This document shows, in pieces, positions 2,659 to 10,850 of a stretch of DNA of 10,850 nt. The position numbers and the translations under genes are program-made. The DNA is from a virus. Position 1 is the first letter of the stretch; every line of letters starts with the position of its first letter. The stretch lies in the UHGV virus genome UHGV-0105900. One strand, written 5' to 3'. A model generated the notes under the pieces. It was not told where the DNA came from. It did no database searches and worked only from the letters and a program-made list of their open reading frames with translations.

Positions 2659-2684
2659 TCTTCAGGGCTTAATTTTTAAGAGCC
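2659..2684 (-). promoter_or_regulatory. nutL remnant: boxA-like GGCTCTTAAAAATTAA and truncated boxB (GCCCTGAAGA, lacking the closing AGGGC)
   Basis: Minus-strand leader ATCAGCAGGACGCACTGACCACCATGAAGGTGAGGCTCTTAAAAATTAAGCCCTGAAGA closely matches the recalled lambda PL leader, then diverges inside boxB. Confidence 0.6.
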
Positions 2685-2716
2685 TCACCTTCATGGTGGT
2701 CAGTGCGTCCTGCTGA

Positions 2717-2796
2717 TGGCTTAAAATTACAAGAAAGATTGTATGTTGTAAACAAGAAATATTGTAAAAAGGGGCGTGAAAAACAAACTCCATTGT
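2717..2796 (-). promoter_or_regulatory. PL promoter with three 434-type operators OL1 (2729-2742), OL2 (2752-2765), OL3 (2783-2796)
   Basis: 14-mers ACAAGAAAGATTGT, ACAAGAAATATTGT, ACAAACTCCATTGT (ACAA-N6-TTGT); minus-strand -35 TTTACA (2747-2752), 17-bp spacer, -10 TAATTT (2724-2729), start near 2717. Confidence 0.8.
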
Positions 2797-2845
2797 TTTT
2801 AAATGAAAAATAGTTTGTTTTTGGTTATCGAGATTGAGGTGGGGA

Positions 2846-4198
<1,353 letters not shown>

Positions 4199-4206
4199 GA
4201 CATTCC

Positions 4207-4238
4207 CGCTCTTACACATCCCAGCCCTGAAAAAGGGC
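4207..4238 (+). promoter_or_regulatory. nutR (boxA CGCTCTTACACATCCCA, boxB GCCCTGAAAAAGGGC), followed by a lambda tR1-like region up to the cII start
   Basis: boxB is a perfect GCCCT-GAAAA-AGGGC hairpin at 4224-4238; sequence from here to the cII ATG matches the recalled lambda nutR-tR1-cII leader. Confidence 0.8.
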
Positions 4239-4317
4239 ATCAAATTAAACCACACCTATGGTGTATGCATTTATTTGCATACATTCAATCAATTGTTATC
4301 TAAGGAAATACTTACAT

Positions 4318-4596
4318 ATGCAACTTACAAGTACTCGCAAGAAAGCGAATGCAATTACAAGCAACATCCTGAATCGAATTGCTGTACGTGGTCAGCGAAA
4401 GGTTGCCGACGCGTTAGGGGTTAATGAATCGCAAATTTCGCGATGGAAAGACAGCTTCATCCCCAAAATGGGAATGCTTCTGGCTGTTCTTGAATGGGGT
4501 GTTGAAGACGAGGAGTTGGCGGAACTGGCTAAGCAAGTAGCCAGAATGCTGACAAAAGAAAAAGCCCCGAAGAACGGCGAATTCTTCGAGGCCTGA
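4318..4596 (+). CDS. cII: CII-like transcriptional activator (lambdoid, diverged from lambda CII)
   Basis: 92 aa; SQISRWK...IPK..MLLAVLEWGV core shared with recalled lambda CII; AAGGA SD; start is the internal ATG of track ORF 4258-4596. Confidence 0.85.
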   Translation: MQLTSTRKKANAITSNILNRIAVRGQRKVADALGVNESQISRWKDSFIPKMGMLLAVLEWGVEDEELAELAKQVARMLTKEKAPKNGEFFEA

Positions 4597-4630
4597 TGTA
4601 GAAAGACTGGATCAATCCACAGGAGTAATT

Positions 4631-4792
4631 ATGACAAAACGTCGTAAGAAATACCAGGAAAAAGAAGAGATTCGACACCCTGATTCACCTGAGGGATTAG
4701 TGGTAGCCGCAGCAAATAACAGGGCGTTCGCAGAACGCCTTGTTGGTGTTTACAGACTAGCCAAAGCAGGAGTGAAACATGGGCGTCGTTAA
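4631..4792 (+). CDS. Hypothetical basic small protein (53 aa); possible 5' remnant of the replication-initiator gene or an independent small gene
   Basis: Strong SD AGGAG 6 nt upstream of the ATG; MTKRRKKYQEKEEIRHPDSPEGLVVAAANNRAFAERLVGVYRLAKAGVKHGRR; 3' end overlaps the Q start by 14 nt; below the ORF-track cutoff. Confidence 0.45.
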   Translation: MTKRRKKYQEKEEIRHPDSPEGLVVAAANNRAFAERLVGVYRLAKAGVKHGRR

Positions 4793-5471
4793 GTTAGCTG
4801 ATTACAGGCCTCAACTGGAGGTCGTGGAGCATCGCGTGGCAGATAACGGGAGTTCGGGAAGCGTAGCTAAATTTCATTCGCCAAAAAGCCCGATGATGAG
4901 CGACTCACCACGGGCTACGGCTTCTGACTCTCTTTCCGGTACTGATGTGATGGCTGCTATGGGGATGGCGCAATCACAAGCCGGATTCGGTATGGCTGCA
5001 TTCTGTGGTAAGCACGAACTCAGCCAGAACGACAAACAAAAGGCTATCAACTATCTGATGCAATTTGCACACAAGGTATCGGGGAAATACCGTGGTGTGG
5101 CAAAGATCGAAGGAAATACTAAGGCAAAGGTACTGCAAGTGCTCGCAACATTCGCTTATGCGGATTATTGCCGTAGTGCCGCGACGCCGGGGGCAAGATG
5201 CAGAGATTGCCACGGTACAGGCCGTGTGGTTGATATAGCAAAAACAGAGCAGTGGGGGAGAGTTGTTGAGAAAGAGTGCGGAAGATGCAAAGGTGTCGGC
5301 TATTCAAGGATGCCAGCAAGCGCCGCATATCGCGCTGTAACGATGCTAATTCCAAACCTCACCCAACCCACCTGGTCACGCACTGTTAAGCCGCTGTATG
5401 ACGCTCTGGTGGTGCAATGCCACAAAGAAGAGTCAATCGCAGACAACATTTTGAACGCGGTCACACGTTAG
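4779..5471 (+). CDS. Q: Lambda-type Q late-gene antiterminator (with a different N-terminal ~26 aa)
   Basis: From SVAKFHSPKSPMMSDSPRATASD... to ...ESIADNILNAVTR nearly identical to recalled lambda Q, including the Cys-rich zinc region CRDCHGTGR...CGRCKG; AGGAG SD 6 nt before the ATG at 4779. Confidence 0.88.
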   Translation: MGVVKLADYRPQLEVVEHRVADNGSSGSVAKFHSPKSPMMSDSPRATASDSLSGTDVMAAMGMAQSQAGFGMAAFCGKHELSQNDKQKAINYLMQFAHKVSGKYRGVAKIEGNTKAKVLQVLATFAYADYCRSAATPGARCRDCHGTGRVVDIAKTEQWGRVVEKECGRCKGVGYSRMPASAAYRAVTMLIPNLTQPTWSRTVKPLYDALVVQCHKEESIADNILNAVTR

Positions 5472-5513
5472 CAGCATGATTGCCACGGATGGCAACATAT
5501 TAACGGCATAATA

Positions 5514-5542
5514 TTGACTTTTTGAATAAAGTTGGGTAAATT
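5514..5542 (+). promoter_or_regulatory. PR'-like late promoter (-35 TTGACT 5514-5519, 17-bp spacer, -10 TAAATT 5537-5542) with Q-utilisation region
   Basis: ATATTGACT...GTTGGGTAAATTTGAC closely matches the recalled lambda PR' sequence directly downstream of Q. Confidence 0.75.
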
Positions 5543-5577
5543 TGACATCAACGATGGATAAATGCACTCGTTAAATA

Positions 5578-5614
5578 AAGCCCTGAGTTAATAGCTCTGG
5601 GCTTTTTGCGTTTT
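5578..5614 (+). terminator. tR'-like intrinsic terminator ending a ~60-nt PR' leader RNA
   Basis: Stem 5577-5587/5595-5605 (one T-T mismatch, 7-nt loop) followed by TTTTTGCGTTTT. Confidence 0.7.
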
Positions 5615-5887
5615 AAGCACGGCCTTTCTGAAAGCACATCAAACCAAATACCAGACAGACAATACCCTCACCTTATAGGGACACTTGCTTCAACAGGAGG
5701 GACGGTTAGGACCGCCATCCTATATGGGACGACCGCCAATAGAACCACGGCCACGGTAATAGAACTCTTCAGAGATGGCACAGTCGCTGCCGGGCATACT
5801 TTTACGCTGAGAGATATTTCTTTTGGAGACAGCAGGGCTCTAGGGGCTGATTTTGGAGGCTCCTTCGGGAATCTGTATAAGTTCTAA
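5579..5887 (+). pseudogene. Open frame without an ATG start, ending 1 nt before a GC hairpin; possible 3' remnant of a deleted late/structural gene
   Basis: Frame open from 5579 to TAA 5885-5887 with no internal ATG; Gly/Thr-rich C-terminal sequence; position corresponds to where a tail or tailspike gene abuts gtr in P22-like/Sf phages. Confidence 0.25.
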
Positions 5888-5888
5888 T

Positions 5889-5906
5889 CGGCCGCATCAG
5901 CGGCCG
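5889..5906. terminator. Perfect 7-bp GC hairpin (CGGCCGC-ATCA-GCGGCCG) between convergent units; probable terminator, possibly bidirectional
   Basis: Followed on the plus strand by TATCTCTTT; lies 8 nt downstream of the gtrC stop on the minus strand. Confidence 0.5.
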
Positions 5907-5913
5907 TATCTCT

Positions 5914-7515
5914 TTACAGATAAGCGACGAAATAGCCGTCAATTTTCTTTATTTTAAGTTTGTCGCCATAGATGGATAGGGGCTTCTTGAGCCATGTATC
6001 GTCTGTGGCGACATATATCTCATTATTCCTTAGCGTACCCTTAGCCTTAATTTCGGCTATATATCTTTTGTTATTATCTATCGCTGCTTTGTCTGCTCTA
6101 GCAAAATACCCAAAATTAAGTTTCATTTTTTCTGAAGAAGCAAATTCAGCAAATGGGAGCCAATGTCTTAAGCTGAACTCATCGTAATCAGTGGTTATGA
6201 TAGTGTCCTTCCCTTTGGAGATGACTTCCCACTCTTTACTCAACATTTGAGAGCTGTATGGCTTACCAGTATATATCTCTCGAACGGCTTTGAAAAAGTT
6301 GCTTTCATCCGCCACTGATATTAATAGAATAGGGAGCAAGACATAAGCAGAACTTTTCGAGGTTTTTGCTAAGTATGCCAAAACAATCAACATCAAGATC
6401 ATCGTCACCGGCCAGAAGAACCGACCAGAAGAGCGAAAAACGCCACCAACCTTCATGAGAAAGTCATTCATTGGAATTTCAATGAGATTAAATCCATAAA
6501 AGTTAATTCGATAAGTTATAGAAACGGCAGCCAGAACTAAACAGAAGTACAATACAGGAGATTTTATAATTCTCCTGAAATCTATGGACTTTCTTAAAGA
6601 GGAGTCTATCAGCATAAACAAAAATAGCGTGATGATGCCTAATCCTAGATAATTTATACCCTCAAAGTTAGCCTGTTGACTCCCATGACTCAAGATAAGA
6701 TGTGAGTATCTCTGGTCTCCTGGGTTGAACCAGCCGGCAAGATCCATGTTAAGGAATCCGAATCCAGGGTATGGGTCAGAGCCTTTAATAACAAAGTATC
6801 CGGTAGCATACATTGCGAGAAATATTAACACAGAGTAACACGCGAAAAAGAATGCCGATCTTTTTAAAGATAAACGGTTTGTGTTCAGTTTGTTTAAAAT
6901 GTCAAATGCAAAAATTAAATACACCATTATCAGCAAATATGCATGAATGGTGACTGAGAGAACTAAAATAGCAGCCCATCTTTTAAAGCAAAAAGACCTA
7001 TTGATATAAAGGTAAAATCCAAAAAGAATTAGCCACTGAGCGCCTAATGCAAAGTGACCACCGGCACGATTTAAGAATATTGGTGCAATGCAGAAGAAGC
7101 ATGAACCTATTGCAGAGAATATCTCATCCTTTGTTAACTTACGAAGAACCAAATACGCAGAAAACGTCATAAGCACAAAGCAAAGATACATCCAAAGCCC
7201 GTGATATTGAAATCTGGCGGGGAGAAAGTCGCTAAAAGGCTTGAATATGAAGGCCATAATTGGGATTGAGTCGGTGTAAACGATAGACCCACCTACACCC
7301 ATCCCATAGTTATAATTTAGGCCAAGGGGCCACTGCAACAACGGAGTATTTCGGAAGAAATTCCATCCTGACCAGCTTTGACCAGGATCACCTATCATAA
7401 GCCATCCAACTCTTTTGAAGTCCAGCACATTCACACCAACATACATAGCAAACATTGATGTCGTGAATATAAACATAAATAAGGACGCTAAAATCCTTTT
7501 TTGTGCCTTAGTCAT
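5914..7515 (-). CDS. gtrC: Serotype-specific O-antigen glucosyltransferase (GtrC-type, polytopic membrane protein)
   Basis: 533 aa, many hydrophobic segments, AT-rich codon usage; third gene of a gtrA-gtrB operon with an 8-nt overlap to gtrB; type specificity cannot be assigned from sequence alone. Confidence 0.8.
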
Positions 7516-8431
7516 TGTGTTTATTCCTTAAGATGTAACGAGGCCTAGCCTTGACTTCAATATATATTCTTCCGATATATTCACCAAGAACGCCAATGCC
7601 GATAAGTTGAATCCCGCCCAAGAACAGGATTGAAACAAGGAGTGAAGGATATCCTCTCACGGCATTTCCAAATGCAATAGTATCGATGATCATCCAGGCT
7701 CCGTAGATAAATGCAAGCCCAGCGACTAGTAATCCAATATAAGTCCACATACGTAGAGGGAATGTAGAAAAGCTAGTAATCCCTTCTAGAGCTAAATTCC
7801 AAAGCTTCCAGCCATTAAACTTTGTGCAACCAGCGACTCGCTCAGCTCTGGCGTATTCTACTACATCTGTTTTCCCGCCAACCCAAGACAAAACGCCCTT
7901 CATGAACAAGTTTCTTTCTGGCATTAGTTTGATATTTTCTACCACTTCTCGTGACATTAAACGGAAGTCACCGACGTTCTCTTCAATTTTGGGATTGCTG
8001 ATTTTATTGTGTAGCTTATAGAACCACTCAGCTGATTTTCGCTTTAAACGACCGTCAGTAGACCTGTCTGTACGTTTGGCCAGAACCATATCCGCCCCAG
8101 CCTGCCACTTCTCAATTAGGTGGGGGATTACTTCAATTGGGTCCTGCAGATCTACATCAATCGGAATGACCGCGTCGCCTGTAGCTTGGTCAAGGCCAGC
8201 AAACAAAGCCGGTTCCTTTCCGAAGTTACGCGTGAAGGAGAGAGGAACTACGAGTGGGTCAGCAATGGCAAGCGCGTTAATAATTGATTCTGTAGCGTCT
8301 TTGCTACCGTCGTTAATGAAGACTATTTCGACTTCATGCTGCTGAAGCCCTTCAAATTCCCGCACGGTTTTATAGAAGATTGGAATTGCTTCCTCTTCAT
8401 TAAACACAGGAACGACCAGAGAAATTTTCAT
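7508..8431 (-). CDS. gtrB: Bactoprenol (undecaprenyl-phosphate) glucosyltransferase GtrB (GT2 family)
   Basis: 307 aa; N-terminal GT2 motifs ([22 protein letters not shown]) plus two C-terminal transmembrane segments; ATGA overlap with the gtrA stop; AGGGA SD. Confidence 0.93.
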
Positions 8432-8790
8432 TTCACATCCCTAAAGACAATGAACTTTGAATAAATAAACCCGCACACCAGACTGATGGCGGAGAACAGA
8501 ATTAAGGTGATGATTGGTGCCAGACCAGATTTATCCGCCGCCCAACCCACAGCTGCGCTAAGCGTCCCCATAAAGCCGACGTAAAGCATGTATCGCATGG
8601 TTGTTGTGGATGACTTAAACGTGAATCTGGCATTTGCGAAGAAGCTAAATGACACAGCCACAACGAACCCGGCAAAGTTGCCAAGGGCCTGTCCTGTATG
8701 GAATGCATAGATGCAAATTGCGAACACTACCCAGTGAATGAGCGTGTTAATGACACCTATCGATGTGTACTTGGCGAATAACTTTAACAT
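8428..8790 (-). CDS. gtrA: Bactoprenol-linked glucose translocase (flippase) GtrA
   Basis: 120 aa from [23 protein letters not shown]..., matching recalled GtrA; the track ORF extends to a GTG at 8853 but the ATG at 8790 matches the homologue N-terminus. Confidence 0.88.
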
Positions 8791-8866
8791 TATAGAAATC
8801 AGTGAATTCGGAAAGGTCTGAAGTGTAGCACCACAAACGCTATTGATCGACACCGCCGATCAGTAC

Positions 8867-8886
8867 TACTGTATTAATATACAGTA
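8867..8886. promoter_or_regulatory. LexA (SOS) box TACTGTATTAATATACAGTA overlapping a candidate extended -10 (TGtATTAAT) for the downstream plus-strand gene
   Basis: CTGT-N8-ACAG palindrome, 19 of 20 matches to the consensus TACTGTATATATATACAGTA; 17 nt upstream of the humD-like start; lies in the 113-bp divergent region shared with gtrA. Confidence 0.85.
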
Positions 8887-8903
8887 ACTATCGGAGGTGA
8901 GTT

Positions 8904-9290
8904 ATGGGATTCCCGAGTCCGGCTCAAGACTATGTTGAAGAGCGCGTATTGCTCGACAAGCGCATCATAAGCAGACCAGCGGCCACGTATTTCATGAGAG
9001 CGGGTGCAACGCATCACCGCGAAGGCATCCTGAATGGTGCTCTTCTGGTAGTGGATGCATCGCTATCACCATGTGACGGCTCGTTGCTGGTTTGCAGAAT
9101 GGAAGGTGAGCTGAGGATTAAGCGATATCGCAAATCACCAAAGCCTCACCTGGAGGATTTGCAGACGGGAAGGCGTGAGGAGATACCGGCACACGATGAC
9201 GGCACGAGTCCGGATGCGATATTTGGTGTGATCACCTACATCATAAACGATGCACGCTCTGGCGAGTTTGATGATTGTCTGATTATGTGA
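8904..9290 (+). CDS. UmuD'-like (HumD-like) SOS mutagenesis accessory protein; S24-fold, naturally lacking the N-terminal arm, catalytic Ser position occupied by Thr
   Basis: 128 aa; starts M-GFPSPAQDYVEERV..., aligning with UmuD from Gly25 (the residue after the Cys24-Gly25 autocleavage site); aligned GDSM is GATH here, Lys of the dyad retained (RIKRY); GGAGG SD; in-frame stop at 8898-8900 directly upstream; no umuC follows. Confidence 0.8.
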   Translation: MGFPSPAQDYVEERVLLDKRIISRPAATYFMRAGATHHREGILNGALLVVDASLSPCDGSLLVCRMEGELRIKRYRKSPKPHLEDLQTGRREEIPAHDDGTSPDAIFGVITYIINDARSGEFDDCLIM

Positions 9291-9299
9291 AAATTTCGT

Positions 9300-9324
9300 T
9301 GTGTACCAAATTGCGTACCAAATA
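9300..9324 (+). repeat. Right-end copies of the GTACCAAA motifs (TGTGTACCAAA 9300-9310; GCGTACCAAATA 9313-9324); candidate integrase binding sites / right att region
   Basis: Exact 11-bp and 12-bp matches to the motifs at 8-18 and 32-43; located 10 nt after the last island gene and before host-like DNA. Confidence 0.45.
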
Positions 9325-9633
9325 AAAGTGTGATGAGAGAGATGGCTTTAATCACGCGGGTTTCGTGGCTGCTGCGCGTAATCGTGAAACAAAAAGGTAG
9401 ATTGTTGCTTACCGTCATTCATCATTAGGTTAAATCCGTTATTTCTGCTGTCTGCCAGAGTATCAAATATCACCGTGCTAATCAGCTTTAGCGCGACAAT
9501 TTGGCAGCGAGTGGCAACAGATCATGTCAGATAAAAATGAGGTAGTAGTCACATTTTCTTGCACTTTATTCCAGCCAGTTCATAAGTATTTCCGTAAAAA
9601 GAACAGCTATTTGAAACACCTGAGGGTTTGCTG

Positions 9634-10800
9634 TTGAAACGCCGTCTTATTATTGCTGCTTCTTTGTTCGTTTTTAATTTATCGTCTGGTTTTGCGGCGG
9701 AAAACATTCCTTTTTCACCTCAGCCTCCAGAGATTCATGCCGGGTCCTGGGTATTGATGGATTACACCACCGGTCAGATTCTCACCGCGGGTAATGAGCA
9801 TCAACAGCGCAATCCCGCCAGCCTGACAAAGCTGATGACGGGCTATGTCGTGGATCGCGCTATCGATAGTCATCGCATTACGCCAGACGATATTGTCACC
9901 GTGGGGCGTGATGCGTGGGCGAAAGATAATCCGGTGTTTGTCGGTTCTTCACTGATGTTTTTGAAAGAGGGCGATCGCGTATCGGTACGTGATTTAAGCC
10001 GAGGTTTAATTGTGGATTCCGGAAATGACGCGTGTGTTGCTCTGGCTGACTATATTGCCGGTGGGCAACGGCAGTTTGTTGAAATGATGAACAACTATGC
10101 CGAGAAGCTGCATCTCAAGGATACGCATTTTGAAACAGTGCATGGTCTGGATGCACCTGGCCAGCATAGCTCGGCTTATGATTTAGCCGTGCTTTCTCGC
10201 GCTATCATCCACGGCGAGCCCGAGTTTTATCATATGTACAGTGAGAAAAGCCTCACCTGGAACGGTATCACCCAGCAAAACCGTAACGGGTTATTGTGGG
10301 ATAAGACCATGAATGTTGACGGCCTGAAAACGGGCCATACTTCTGGTGCCGGGTTTAATCTTATTGCTTCGGCTGTAGACGGGCAGCGTCGCCTCATTGC
10401 AGTGGTAATGGGTGCTGACAGCGCAAAAGGTCGTGAGGAAGAGGCAAAAAAATTACTGCGTTGGGGGCAACAAAACTTTACTACGGTGCAAATTTTGCAC
10501 CGTAGGAAAAAGGTCGGTACGGAACGCATCTGGTATGGTGATAAAGAAAATATCGCCCTGGGAACGGAACAAGAGTTCTGGATGGTGCTACCGAAAGCCG
10601 AAATTCCACATATCAAAGCCAAATATACCCTTAATGGTAAAGAGCTCACCGCGCCAATTAGCGCCCATCAGCGGGTAGGGGAAATTGAACTTTACGACCG
10701 TGATAAACAGGTGGCGCACTGGCCGCTGGTTACCCTGGAATCTGTCGGGGAAGGCAGCATGTTTTCTCGCCTGAGTGATTATTTCCACCATAAGGCCTGA
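9634..10800 (+). CDS. dacD: D-alanyl-D-alanine carboxypeptidase, PBP5/6 family (PBP6b-like)
   Basis: Signal peptide, SxxK (SLTK), SxN (SGND) and KTG (KTGHT) motifs; sequence matches recalled E. coli DacD; probable TTG start at 9634 (388 aa) after GAGGG SD, alternative TTG at 9628. Confidence 0.88.
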   Translation: MKRRLIIAASLFVFNLSSGFAAENIPFSPQPPEIHAGSWVLMDYTTGQILTAGNEHQQRNPASLTKLMTGYVVDRAIDSHRITPDDIVTVGRDAWAKDNPVFVGSSLMFLKEGDRVSVRDLSRGLIVDSGNDACVALADYIAGGQRQFVEMMNNYAEKLHLKDTHFETVHGLDAPGQHSSAYDLAVLSRAIIHGEPEFYHMYSEKSLTWNGITQQNRNGLLWDKTMNVDGLKTGHTSGAGFNLIASAVDGQRRLIAVVMGADSAKGREEEAKKLLRWGQQNFTTVQILHRRKKVGTERIWYGDKENIALGTEQEFWMVLPKAEIPHIKAKYTLNGKELTAPISAHQRVGEIELYDRDKQVAHWPLVTLESVGEGSMFSRLSDYFHHKA

Positions 10801-10850
10801 CCTTTCTTTTGCAGCAGACTGGCAGGAGTGCGAGTCTGCTCGCATAATCA

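Follow-up and report, generated by a model that had tools for sequence, protein, structure and literature searches.

The window considered here, a stretch of 10,850 nucleotides, is a heavily deleted and defective lambda-like (lambdoid) prophage of Escherichia coli, integrated in the 5' end of sbcB, adjacent to dacD, with a 13-bp core repeat lying within the 5' codons of sbcB. It has kept a late-gene switch of the lambda type, i.e., Q, its promoter PR' and the promoter-proximal terminator, beside a cluster of O-antigen-modifying gtr genes, and this raises the question of whether the switch has been turned upon the gtr genes or simply left behind. An earlier note, drawn from the sequence alone, had offered both possibilities: a remnant with no function, or a means of shutting down O-antigen modification upon the switch to the lytic state. 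Of the two, the former is the better supported in light of the ancestral geometry of the locus, the altered N-terminus of Q and the ongoing decay among relatives. The retained gtr genes and the switch beside them look like ordinary prophage decay rather than a new regulatory device, and a decay remnant with gtrCBA as its retained cargo is quite likely the best explanation.

The late promoter and the loss of the late genes

The PR' late promoter (5514–5542, plus strand; -35 TTGACT, 17-nt spacer, -10 TAAATT) is identical to that of an intact prophage in E. coli strain 1506 and of the phages HK97 and mEpX1. Alignment with these and with lambda places the Q-binding element or qut site within it (5520–5540, plus strand); relative to lambda, the -35, the -10 and a downstream AACGAT match, with two mismatches in the Q-binding element, and the annotation of JQ182727 marks these bases as a promoter and Qut site. 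A consensus promoter scan of the whole window against shuffled sequences found 12 candidates with 18.6 expected, which is not above chance, and the PR' call therefore rests on homology, which bears out the PR'-like promoter that the earlier note had proposed at these positions. The AACGAT (5550–5555, plus strand), covering roughly +1 to +6 of the PR' transcript, is invariant in lambda, HK97 and mEpX1, and by analogy with lambda PR' we take it to be the -10-like, sigma-dependent pause element. The first PR'-proximal predicted intrinsic terminator follows at 5577–5614 (plus strand), matching almost to the base the tR'-like element noted before at 5578–5614. It combines a 13-position stem bearing one U.U mismatch, a 3-nt loop and a U-run, folds at -17.2 kcal/mol (z -2.9; -21.1 kcal/mol for the HK97 version) and is conserved in HK97, mEpX1 and the 1506 prophage; in the absence of Q it would yield an RNA of approximately 60–65 nt. 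No Rfam family was detected in the window at the gathering threshold, so no known RNA element accounts for the region, and nothing found suggests a new kind of system.

The prophage of strain 1506 (L003) occupies the same chromosomal site, and two further intact copies are available (L011 and L015). Positions 4859–5676 of the window, i.e., the Q-PR'-qut-terminator module, equal 16198–17015 of L003 at 100% identity, and positions 5674–10850 correspond to 40882–46058, with 99.4% identity from the end of the tailspike gene through dacD. Thus, the lysis and morphogenesis genes, whose absence the earlier note had rightly remarked upon, were removed by a single deletion of 23,866 bp relative to 1506. 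The comparison with an intact relative, which the note itself had proposed, shifts the junction from near 5615 to 5674–5676, where a 3-bp TAT microhomology lies about 60 nt past the PR' terminator. The other end of the deletion is codon 681 of the 750-codon tailspike gene, which in the intact prophage codes for a 750-aa pectate-lyase/GH28-like protein. Its last 70 codons and stop survive at 5675–5887 (plus strand); their translation matches the end of the 1506 tailspike protein residue for residue, and this is what had been seen as a short start-less ORF remnant. The longer open frame at 5606–5887 was considered as a real small gene and ruled out: from 5675 it is the tailspike frame and before that the PR' leader. 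The GC hairpin likewise described earlier is present at 5889–5906, with a 7-bp all-GC stem and a fold z of -4.3; the same sequence is found in the intact prophage. It sits in the 26-bp space between the tailspike gene and gtrC and probably acts as a terminator in both directions, with a weak U-tract on either strand.

A distance of 370 bp now separates the Q-PR'-terminator unit from the 3' end of gtrC. Already in the intact prophage of strain 1506, the stop codons of the tailspike gene and gtrC stand 26 bp apart around this same hairpin, and the late operon of SfIV likewise converges on gtrC. Hence, the antisense geometry toward the gtr genes is ancestral and not a product of the deletion. The earlier proposal that the unit was kept while the late genes were lost stands; its suggestion that the unit had thereby come to be aimed antisense into gtrCBA does not.

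The fused Q gene and its early region

The description of Q as an intact lambda-type gene holds in part. The ORF at 4779–5471 (plus strand) does belong to the Q-lambda family (Pfam PF03589, Antiterm, E 2.4e-57), whose members have a zinc ribbon and a DNA-binding body, yet blastn against the E308 and 1506 relatives and protein alignment reveal it to be a chimera of 230 aa. Codons 1–22 (4779–4844) encode the N-terminal end of a replication protein of the lambda-O type; five codons (NGSSG) from the out-of-frame 3' end of the replication gene form a linker; and the remainder, from 4860, comprises Q residues 5–207. Homology to Q begins at 4859, nt 12 of the gene, so that the first 11 nt, the native ATG and the ribosome-binding site are missing. 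No translation start of its own was found for Q, which can be translated only from the replication-gene start via the fusion, whose ATG is preceded by a good ribosome-binding site (AGGAG). An older junction of the replication gene with Q lies at 4858/4859, and that of a 710-bp deletion at 4844/4845, with a TA microhomology. Microhomologies of just 2–3 bp at the junctions are the mark of random illegitimate deletions. That the 710-bp deletion put a start codon back in frame had a one-in-three chance, yet would look the same as reactivation. The exact fusion protein was found on 8 of the contigs read, from at least four samples. A cII-box (TTGC-N6-TTGC; 5135–5148, minus strand) was also detected within Q by motif scan, presumably at the place of the lambda PaQ antisense promoter.

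The activity of the fusion protein is uncertain, since Q residues 1–11 form the first helix of the antitermination torus (PMC9388147). Residues 1–44 of Q-lambda fold into this torus in the RNA-exit channel, with a functionally important N-terminal segment, and a V6A substitution abolishes antitermination (PMC9388147). The fusion retains residues 5–44, including V6 and G39, but has residues 1–4 replaced and 27 foreign residues added at its N-terminus. The structural papers on Q-lambda, wherein the His-TEV tag was removed, are uninformative on such an extension.

The early region upstream is of the 434/Sf6 immunity type: positions 2664–4320 are 99.9% identical to Sf6 and 98.7% identical to phage 434. 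The cI repressor (3247–3879, minus strand) combines HTH and S24 self-cleaving domains (Pfam HTH_3 and Peptidase_S24), and a motif scan recovers three 434-type 14-mer OR operators at 3911, 3934 and 3956 (3911–3969), which enclose a PR promoter called from a promoter scan and the sequence (TTGACA-17-GAAAAT; 3927–3955). These are followed on the plus strand by a 71-aa 434-type cro (3983–4198; HTH_3, a gene call in L007 and the phage 434/Sf6 annotation), a nutR boxB (GCCCTGAAAAAGGGC; 4224–4238; from the sequence and the nutR annotated in phage 434 under the match), a 92-aa cII (4318–4596; PF05269 on the identical L007 gene and a lambda CII family annotation in E308) and, ahead of the replication gene, a 53-aa ORF (orf53; 4631–4792) without an assigned function, which is also present in the intact prophage. 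The N gene that nutR would serve is absent from the window, with no N-like ORF left of OL, and the promoter and terminator scan found no intrinsic terminator between PR and Q.

The gtr cargo, the relatives and the rival readings

The convergent gtrC-gtrB-gtrA operon is as the earlier note had it, with all three genes on the minus strand and supported by Pfam. The gene in the gtrC position (5914–7515) codes for a 533-aa DUF6311 membrane protein (PF19830, E 5.9e-64), a putative type-specific O-antigen transferase; gtrB (7508–8431; PF00535) for a bactoprenol glucosyltransferase of the GT2 family; and gtrA (8428–8790; PF04138) for a flippase. Neighboring ORFs share 4 and 8 nt. Upstream of gtrA, where Salmonella clusters carry a Dam/OxyR phase-variation signature, just two GATC sites were noted, at a spacing of 13 bp. 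At the DNA level gtrA and gtrB are 74–80% identical to phage genes, with the relatives of gtrB including SfIV, P22 and Enterobacter phages. The gtrC-position protein is indexed in its exact form in 429 blocks of the collection. No phage match to this DUF6311 protein was found in the collection searched. Beyond the operon, on the plus strand, lie a humD-like S24 gene (8904–9290) with its own near-consensus LexA box and dacD (9628–10800). Most bacterial gtrABC clusters have been reported to sit in prophages, at every stage between intact and highly degraded (PMC2629481).

The relatives at this site form a series of decay from one ancestor. The type represented by the window keeps cI and cro and carries the fusion Q. 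The E308 type (L012, L014 plus nine similar contigs, and L019) shares the same Q/tailspike junction but has lost cI, cro and PR; PSS-10 has lost these too, by a different deletion, and in both a Q start is possible only at Met16. L017 has additionally lost window positions 4395–5715, i.e., Q, PR' and the terminator, while keeping gtr at 99.98% identity, and TUM12357 and L016 represent independent decay in which gtr, but not Q, was kept. Roughly 14 of the approximately 21 long contigs read with this exact GtrC bear the junction, so the form is not rare in that sample, a point against simple decay. The intact progenitor and no fewer than six states derived from it share a single chromosomal site, with the gtr cargo as the sole constant part. 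It is most likely gtrCBA, for O-antigen modification, that is under selection, and perhaps the 434-type immunity as well. That the Q-PR'-qut-terminator unit is still there can be put down to deletion end-points that spared it and too little time for decay. In keeping with decay, all four contigs of the window type are 100% identical to the window and hence one recent clone. Counting against a reading of simple decay, there are no sequence changes by which relaxed selection could be tested.

Under the decay reading, the window would descend from a serotype-converting phage, of which strain 1506 still has an intact copy at this site. In this ancestor, PR' would have driven the holin, endolysin, spanin, head, tail and tailspike genes, ending 26 bp from the convergent gtrCBA. 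Illegitimate recombination at the 3-bp microhomology would then have removed 23.9 kb and grounded the prophage; other deletions would have taken N, and the replication and nin region along with 11 nt from the start of Q; and the later 710-bp deletion would by chance have joined Q in frame to the beginning of the replication gene. Today PR' probably makes a short terminated RNA constitutively. Cleavage of cI in the SOS response would presumably free PR for transcription through cro, cII and orf53 into the fusion Q, for which N would not be required now that the nin terminators have been lost. Should the fusion Q still antiterminate, polymerase would run antisense through gtrCBA, as a by-product like that in the intact phage and not as an evolved regulator.

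How much of this machinery still works, and whether selection has acted on it, is where the rival readings diverge. That the fusion Q functions and that SOS-induced antisense transcription of gtr occurs as a neutral by-product without fitness effect is a possibility worth keeping in mind, even if a doubtful one. It draws on the same cis and trans elements that would serve a selected switch; it is opposed by the replacement of residues 1–4 of helix 1 with a Gly/Ser-rich linker near the position where V6A abolishes antitermination. A stronger version holds that a functional cascade of cI434, PR, fusion Q and PR' has been domesticated, so that SOS induction elicits terminator- and Rho-resistant antisense transcription that lowers O-antigen modification as a selected response. 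In its favor, PR', qut, the pause site and the terminator are unmutated and identical to those of working phages; the cleavable cI, the OR/PR region, the terminator-free path to Q and the AGGAG are all in place in the window type; and residues 5–207 of Q, with V6, are kept. In lambda, as nin5 illustrates, N is dispensable without the nin region, and here, too, that region is gone and N unneeded. Also counted in favor are the ability of Q-lambda to suppress polarity and hairpin terminators (PMC12360218, PMC9388147) and the precedent of other prophages in which an antisense architecture switches accessory genes between the lysogenic and lytic states (PMC11087260). Against this, the geometry is inherited, as in 1506 and SfIV; sister lineages have lost PR or the whole Q-PR' unit while keeping gtr; and the first torus helix at the N-terminus of Q is altered. 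Independent recurrence is also wanting: the juxtaposition of Q-PR' with gtrC was found beyond common descent in no case, there being a single junction that is lost in L017 and absent from TUM12357 and L016, and gtr lay within 8 kb of Q in none of 40 loci from other species, a weak negative in that one genome per species was taken and lambda control-DNA contamination dominated the matches. A literature search found no report of late-operon antisense control of gtr. Further, growth would merely dilute the modified O-antigen already made, and the benefit of a transient pulse is therefore probably slight. Such a domesticated response is decidedly improbable, and so is the more specific proposal that the second deletion re-armed a start-less Q under SOS control through cI434 as a compact, N-free and non-lethal antitermination switch, whose terminator- and Rho-resistant transcript would silence gtrCBA by head-on and antisense transcription and continue in sense into the LexA-controlled humD-like gene and dacD.

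It is highly improbable that the read-through matters chiefly beyond gtr, with Q-modified polymerase entering the humD-like gene and dacD in sense and adding phage-switch control to them. Both genes do lie downstream on the plus strand, and the LexA box at the S24 gene makes co-induction with SOS coherent; however, the argument is one of position, the intact phage would show such read-through as well, and polymerase would have to cross more than 3 kb of head-on transcription. That the junctions are assembly artefacts or chimeras can be practically discounted: the window is identical to a metagenome-assembled contig, and no other point speaks for it, but two finished chromosomes carry the Q/tailspike junction, as do several draft assemblies of independent origin, and the fusion junction recurs in four independent samples. 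On account of this recurrence, the explanation was rejected.

The decay reading makes the locus a clean and well-resolved case of stepwise prophage decay, with each deletion end-point mapped, and both a worked example and a warning that a regulatory module may look complete and yet be left over. Should the fusion Q prove active, Q-dependent read-through and transcriptional interference could be studied on a chromosomal operon in a natural and non-lethal setting, with strains of the E308 and L017 types as ready-made negative controls.

Likeness to known systems

The closest parallel for the switch itself is the lambda/HK97/HK022-type Q module, with which the window shares the -35, the -10 and the AACGAT element. 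Over Q residues 5–207, the fusion has 98% identity with lambda Q and 100% with Q of an intact E. coli prophage, and the two differences from lambda in the Q-binding element recur in plaque-forming phages such as mEpX1 and HK542, among others. The promoter-proximal hairpin terminator is held in common with HK97, whose stem has a G.U where that of the window has a U.U. Unlike these modules, Q of the window lacks a native start, ribosome-binding site and residues 1–4, with 27 foreign residues in their stead, there are no late genes downstream, and a second conserved hairpin that precedes the holin gene has been deleted.

As for the cargo, a parallel might be struck with the gtrABC serotype-converting prophages and their remnants (P22, SfIV and epsilon34, and the gtr islands of Salmonella and Shigella), which are represented in the 74–80% DNA identity of gtrA and gtrB: there, too, the cluster lies at the prophage end, convergent with the tail genes, and is retained while the prophage decays. 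The window differs in that its third gene is a DUF6311 gene, its site is sbcB and a late promoter was left 370 bp from gtrC. The Shigella phage Sf101 resembles it in locus and lifestyle, combining sbcB integration with O-antigen modification (PMC4159516), but carries an O-acetyltransferase and not a gtr cluster. Finally, the tha/ith arrangement of the Staphylococcus aureus phage 80alpha is similar in that opposing transcription makes the lysogenic and lytic expression of accessory genes mutually exclusive (PMC11087260); however, that system is experimentally demonstrated and conserved, whereas the one in the window is known from its geometry alone, a geometry that has been lost in a sister lineage.

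The sbcB prophage and the loss of its late genes

The window, a piece of E. coli chromosome lying between sbcB and dacD, is matched at 100% identity over all 10,850 bases by an ENA metagenome contig (L007). Its prophage encodes an integrase (50–1228), a 434/Sf6-type immunity region comprising cI (3247–3879), OR/PR (3911–3969) and cro (3983–4198), a nutR ahead of cII (4318–4596), a 53-codon ORF between cII and a Q-family ORF (4779–5471), and, after a short intergenic stretch, the minus-strand genes gtrC, gtrB and gtrA (5914–8790); an S24 peptidase gene (HumD/UmuD'-like; 8904–9290) forms its right end, followed by dacD. The insertion point lies within the first sbcB codons: the 13-bp core CGTAATCGTGAAA occurs twice, at 9377–9389 (attR) and in sbcB at attL (window 9375–9427; 3651–3701 of L001, from strain E308), the displaced original sbcB 5' end (MMNDGKQQSTFLFHDY) is still present on the minus strand at attR, and the new sbcB N-terminus (MTDTDKQPTFLFHDYET) is phage-supplied. 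In Shigella phage Sf101, too, sbcB is the integration locus (PMC4159516). The immunity region (2664–4320) is 99.9% identical to that of Shigella phage Sf6 and 98.7% to that of phage 434. Its operators are OL-like at 2729, 2752 and 2783, with those of OR at 3911, 3934 and 3956; PL lacks the N gene expected behind it and faces a truncated dATP/dGTP pyrophosphohydrolase gene (2316–2654).

In E. coli strain 1506, this site is occupied by a complete prophage, in which Q (207 aa) is followed by holin, endolysin, spanin, terminase, head, contractile-tail and baseplate genes and a 750-aa tailspike, and then by convergent gtrC (DUF6311), gtrB and gtrA, the S24 gene and dacD. Window 4859–5676 corresponds to 16198–17015 of the 1506 record and 5674–10850 to 40882–46058 (99.4% identity), with 23,866 bp absent relative to 1506—i.e., all the lysis and morphogenesis genes, whose absence the earlier note had recognized, and tailspike codons 1–680. 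The junction, which that note placed near 5615, maps to 5674–5676, ~60 nt past the PR' terminator; there CACCTTAT is joined to AGGGAC, and the TAT shared by both parents is the signature of illegitimate recombination. The start-less ORF remnant noted downstream is the tailspike's final 70 codons, with identical translation, and the GC hairpin at 5889–5906 is the one filling the 26-bp gap between the tailspike and gtrC stop codons of the intact phage.

The PR' region and the Q reading frame

The segment 4859–5676 matches the 1506 prophage at 100%; against the corresponding Q-to-PR' stretch of HK97, HK022 and the mEp phages, identity is 96.6–97.6%. When the Q-to-holin spacers are aligned, the −35 (TTGACT), the −10 (TAAATT) and the AACGAT just downstream are invariant in the window, 1506, HK97, mEpX1 and lambda. 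In the Q-binding element, two positions depart from lambda; both differences are shared with the plaque-forming mEp phages, whose depositors annotate these bases as promoter and Qut site. The hairpin and U-run at 5577–5614 are conserved in HK97 and mEpX1, with a predicted fold of −17.2 kcal/mol versus −21.1 for the HK97 version; the difference comes from a G-to-T change, shared with 1506, by which HK97's G.U pair becomes a U.U mismatch. The PR'-like promoter and tR'-like terminator originally proposed are thus real, as are qut and the pause site, with support from homology far beyond chance; a bare consensus promoter scan (12 sites found versus 18.6 expected) would not have established this. 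The lambda Q-to-S stretch also occurs at 99.9–100% in 13 genome assemblies of unrelated species (e.g., Pseudomonas, Shewanella, Oceanobacillus, Bradyrhizobium and Kitasatospora), several of the contigs being about 48.4–48.5 kb, which is evidently lambda control-DNA contamination.

Q itself, taken to be intact in the earlier note, is not: its homology starts only at nt 12 of the gene, and therefore its ATG, its RBS and the upstream ninH have been lost. E308 and its relatives have a lambda-O-type replication protein of 265 aa whose end, in a different frame, is at the equivalent of 4864–4866; Met16 is their only possible Q start (annotated as 192 aa). In the window, a second deletion of 710 bp at 4844/4845, with TA microhomology, makes replication-gene codons 1–22 run in frame, via a five-codon linker (NGSSG), into Q from residue 5. 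The exact 230-aa fusion protein was read in 8 contigs from at least four samples; it keeps V6 and all beyond residue 5, with residues 1–4 changed and 27 residues added. In Q-lambda, residues 1–44 fold into a torus narrowing the channel through which RNA exits, with the first helix (residues 1–11) at the channel mouth, and either V6A or deletion of residues 1–38 abolishes antitermination while leaving DNA binding unaffected (PMC9388147). The fusion Q is rather unlikely to be active still, and the Met16-start Q of E308-type strains is very likely inactive.

Minus-strand cII-type boxes (TTGC-N6-TTGC/T) lie at 4327–4340 at the cII start, the position of lambda PRE, and at 5135–5148 inside Q, the position of lambda PaQ; as the cII gene is intact, an anti-Q antisense promoter may also survive. 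A strong minus-strand 14-pair hairpin with a T-run at the cII 3' end (4562–4594), where lambda has its oop RNA terminator, had no match in Rfam.

Predicted transcription toward gtrCBA

In the intact 1506 prophage, the end of the late operon is already head-to-head with gtrC. In SfIV, likewise, the tail genes and gtrC-gtrB-gtrA-int occupy opposite strands. The linear P22 record has gtrC at its very start on the minus strand, its convergent neighbor on the P22 map being tailspike gene 9. A late operon converging on gtrC is thus the ancestral layout. Since 1506 and SfIV are already convergent, the deletion did not aim PR' at gtr: of the earlier note's suggestion that PR' is now directed antisense into gtr, the convergence stands and its creation by the deletion does not, the latter having done no more than bring the two closer, from about 24 kb apart to 370 bp.

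Lambda PR' is constitutive, and that of the window would produce a ~60–65-nt RNA ending at 5606–5614. The window-type cI includes a self-cleavage domain of the S24 family. On the plus strand from PR to the fusion ORF, the only intrinsic terminator detected is a weak 5-bp candidate inside cro, and a Shine-Dalgarno AGGAG precedes the fusion ATG. In lambda nin5, Q expression is N-independent; with the nin-region terminators likewise deleted and no strong terminator on the way from PR, the fusion Q would be expressed despite the absence of N. If it were active, polymerase would read through terminator, tailspike stub and hairpin alike, transcribe gtrCBA antisense, and beyond it reach the S24 gene and dacD in sense. 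Q-lambda suppresses polarity as well (PMC12360218), and therefore Rho would not be expected to halt the untranslated antisense transcript. In E308-type strains, with PR lost and Q truncated, the short PR' RNA alone would be expected.

The 113-bp divergent gtrA/humD intergenic region contains a near-consensus LexA box (TACTGTATTAATATACAGTA; 8867–8886), 18 nt upstream of the S24 gene, and LexA might consequently also touch the gtr promoter. In E308, two ISKox3 copies (11992–13307 and 15401 onward of L012/L001) flank the S24-dacD segment; one lies in this intergenic region, with an 8-bp target duplication equivalent to window 8873–8880, and splits the LexA box. Upstream of gtrA (8845–8861), two GATC sites 13 bp apart resemble, in those sites alone, the regions behind Dam/OxyR phase variation in Salmonella gtr operons.

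Decay of the locus

The states of the locus, found by exact GtrC protein look-up and sorted by junction, range from intact prophages (1506, L011, L015) to the window type (L007–L010), with the late deletion and the fusion but cI and cro kept, and the E308 type (L012, L014 and nine similar places, L019), with an identical late junction and window 2664–4163 deleted (cI, OR/PR and cro gone). PSS-10 (L013) shares the late junction and lost cI and cro by a different deletion. L017, an E308-type derivative, has also lost window 4395–5715 and with it half of cII, the replication gene, Q, PR', the terminator and the late junction; across gtr it nevertheless remains 99.98% identical. TUM12357 and L016 represent independent decay routes that kept gtrCBA and have no Q.

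The observation of a Q-PR' unit facing gtr without its late genes is good and now precisely mapped. That Q-PR' was selected to regulate gtr through antisense transcription is, however, speculation and highly improbable: the geometry is inherited, the Q N-terminus is altered, the unit was lost in a sister lineage, and independent recurrence of the arrangement was not found among the loci compared. By a rough count, with no statistical test, about one of five later events in the lineage sharing the late junction struck the Q-PR' unit, close to the frequency expected from the proportion of the remaining non-gtr DNA that it makes up. The Q-PR'-terminator unit is very probably a decay remnant. Both the Q module and the gtr cluster are of well-known kinds, and this locus is an undescribed yet ordinary one. 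All its states have only gtrCBA in common, along with the S24 gene and the integrase end, which matches published work placing most gtrABC clusters of bacteria in prophages that are anything from intact to highly degraded (PMC2629481).
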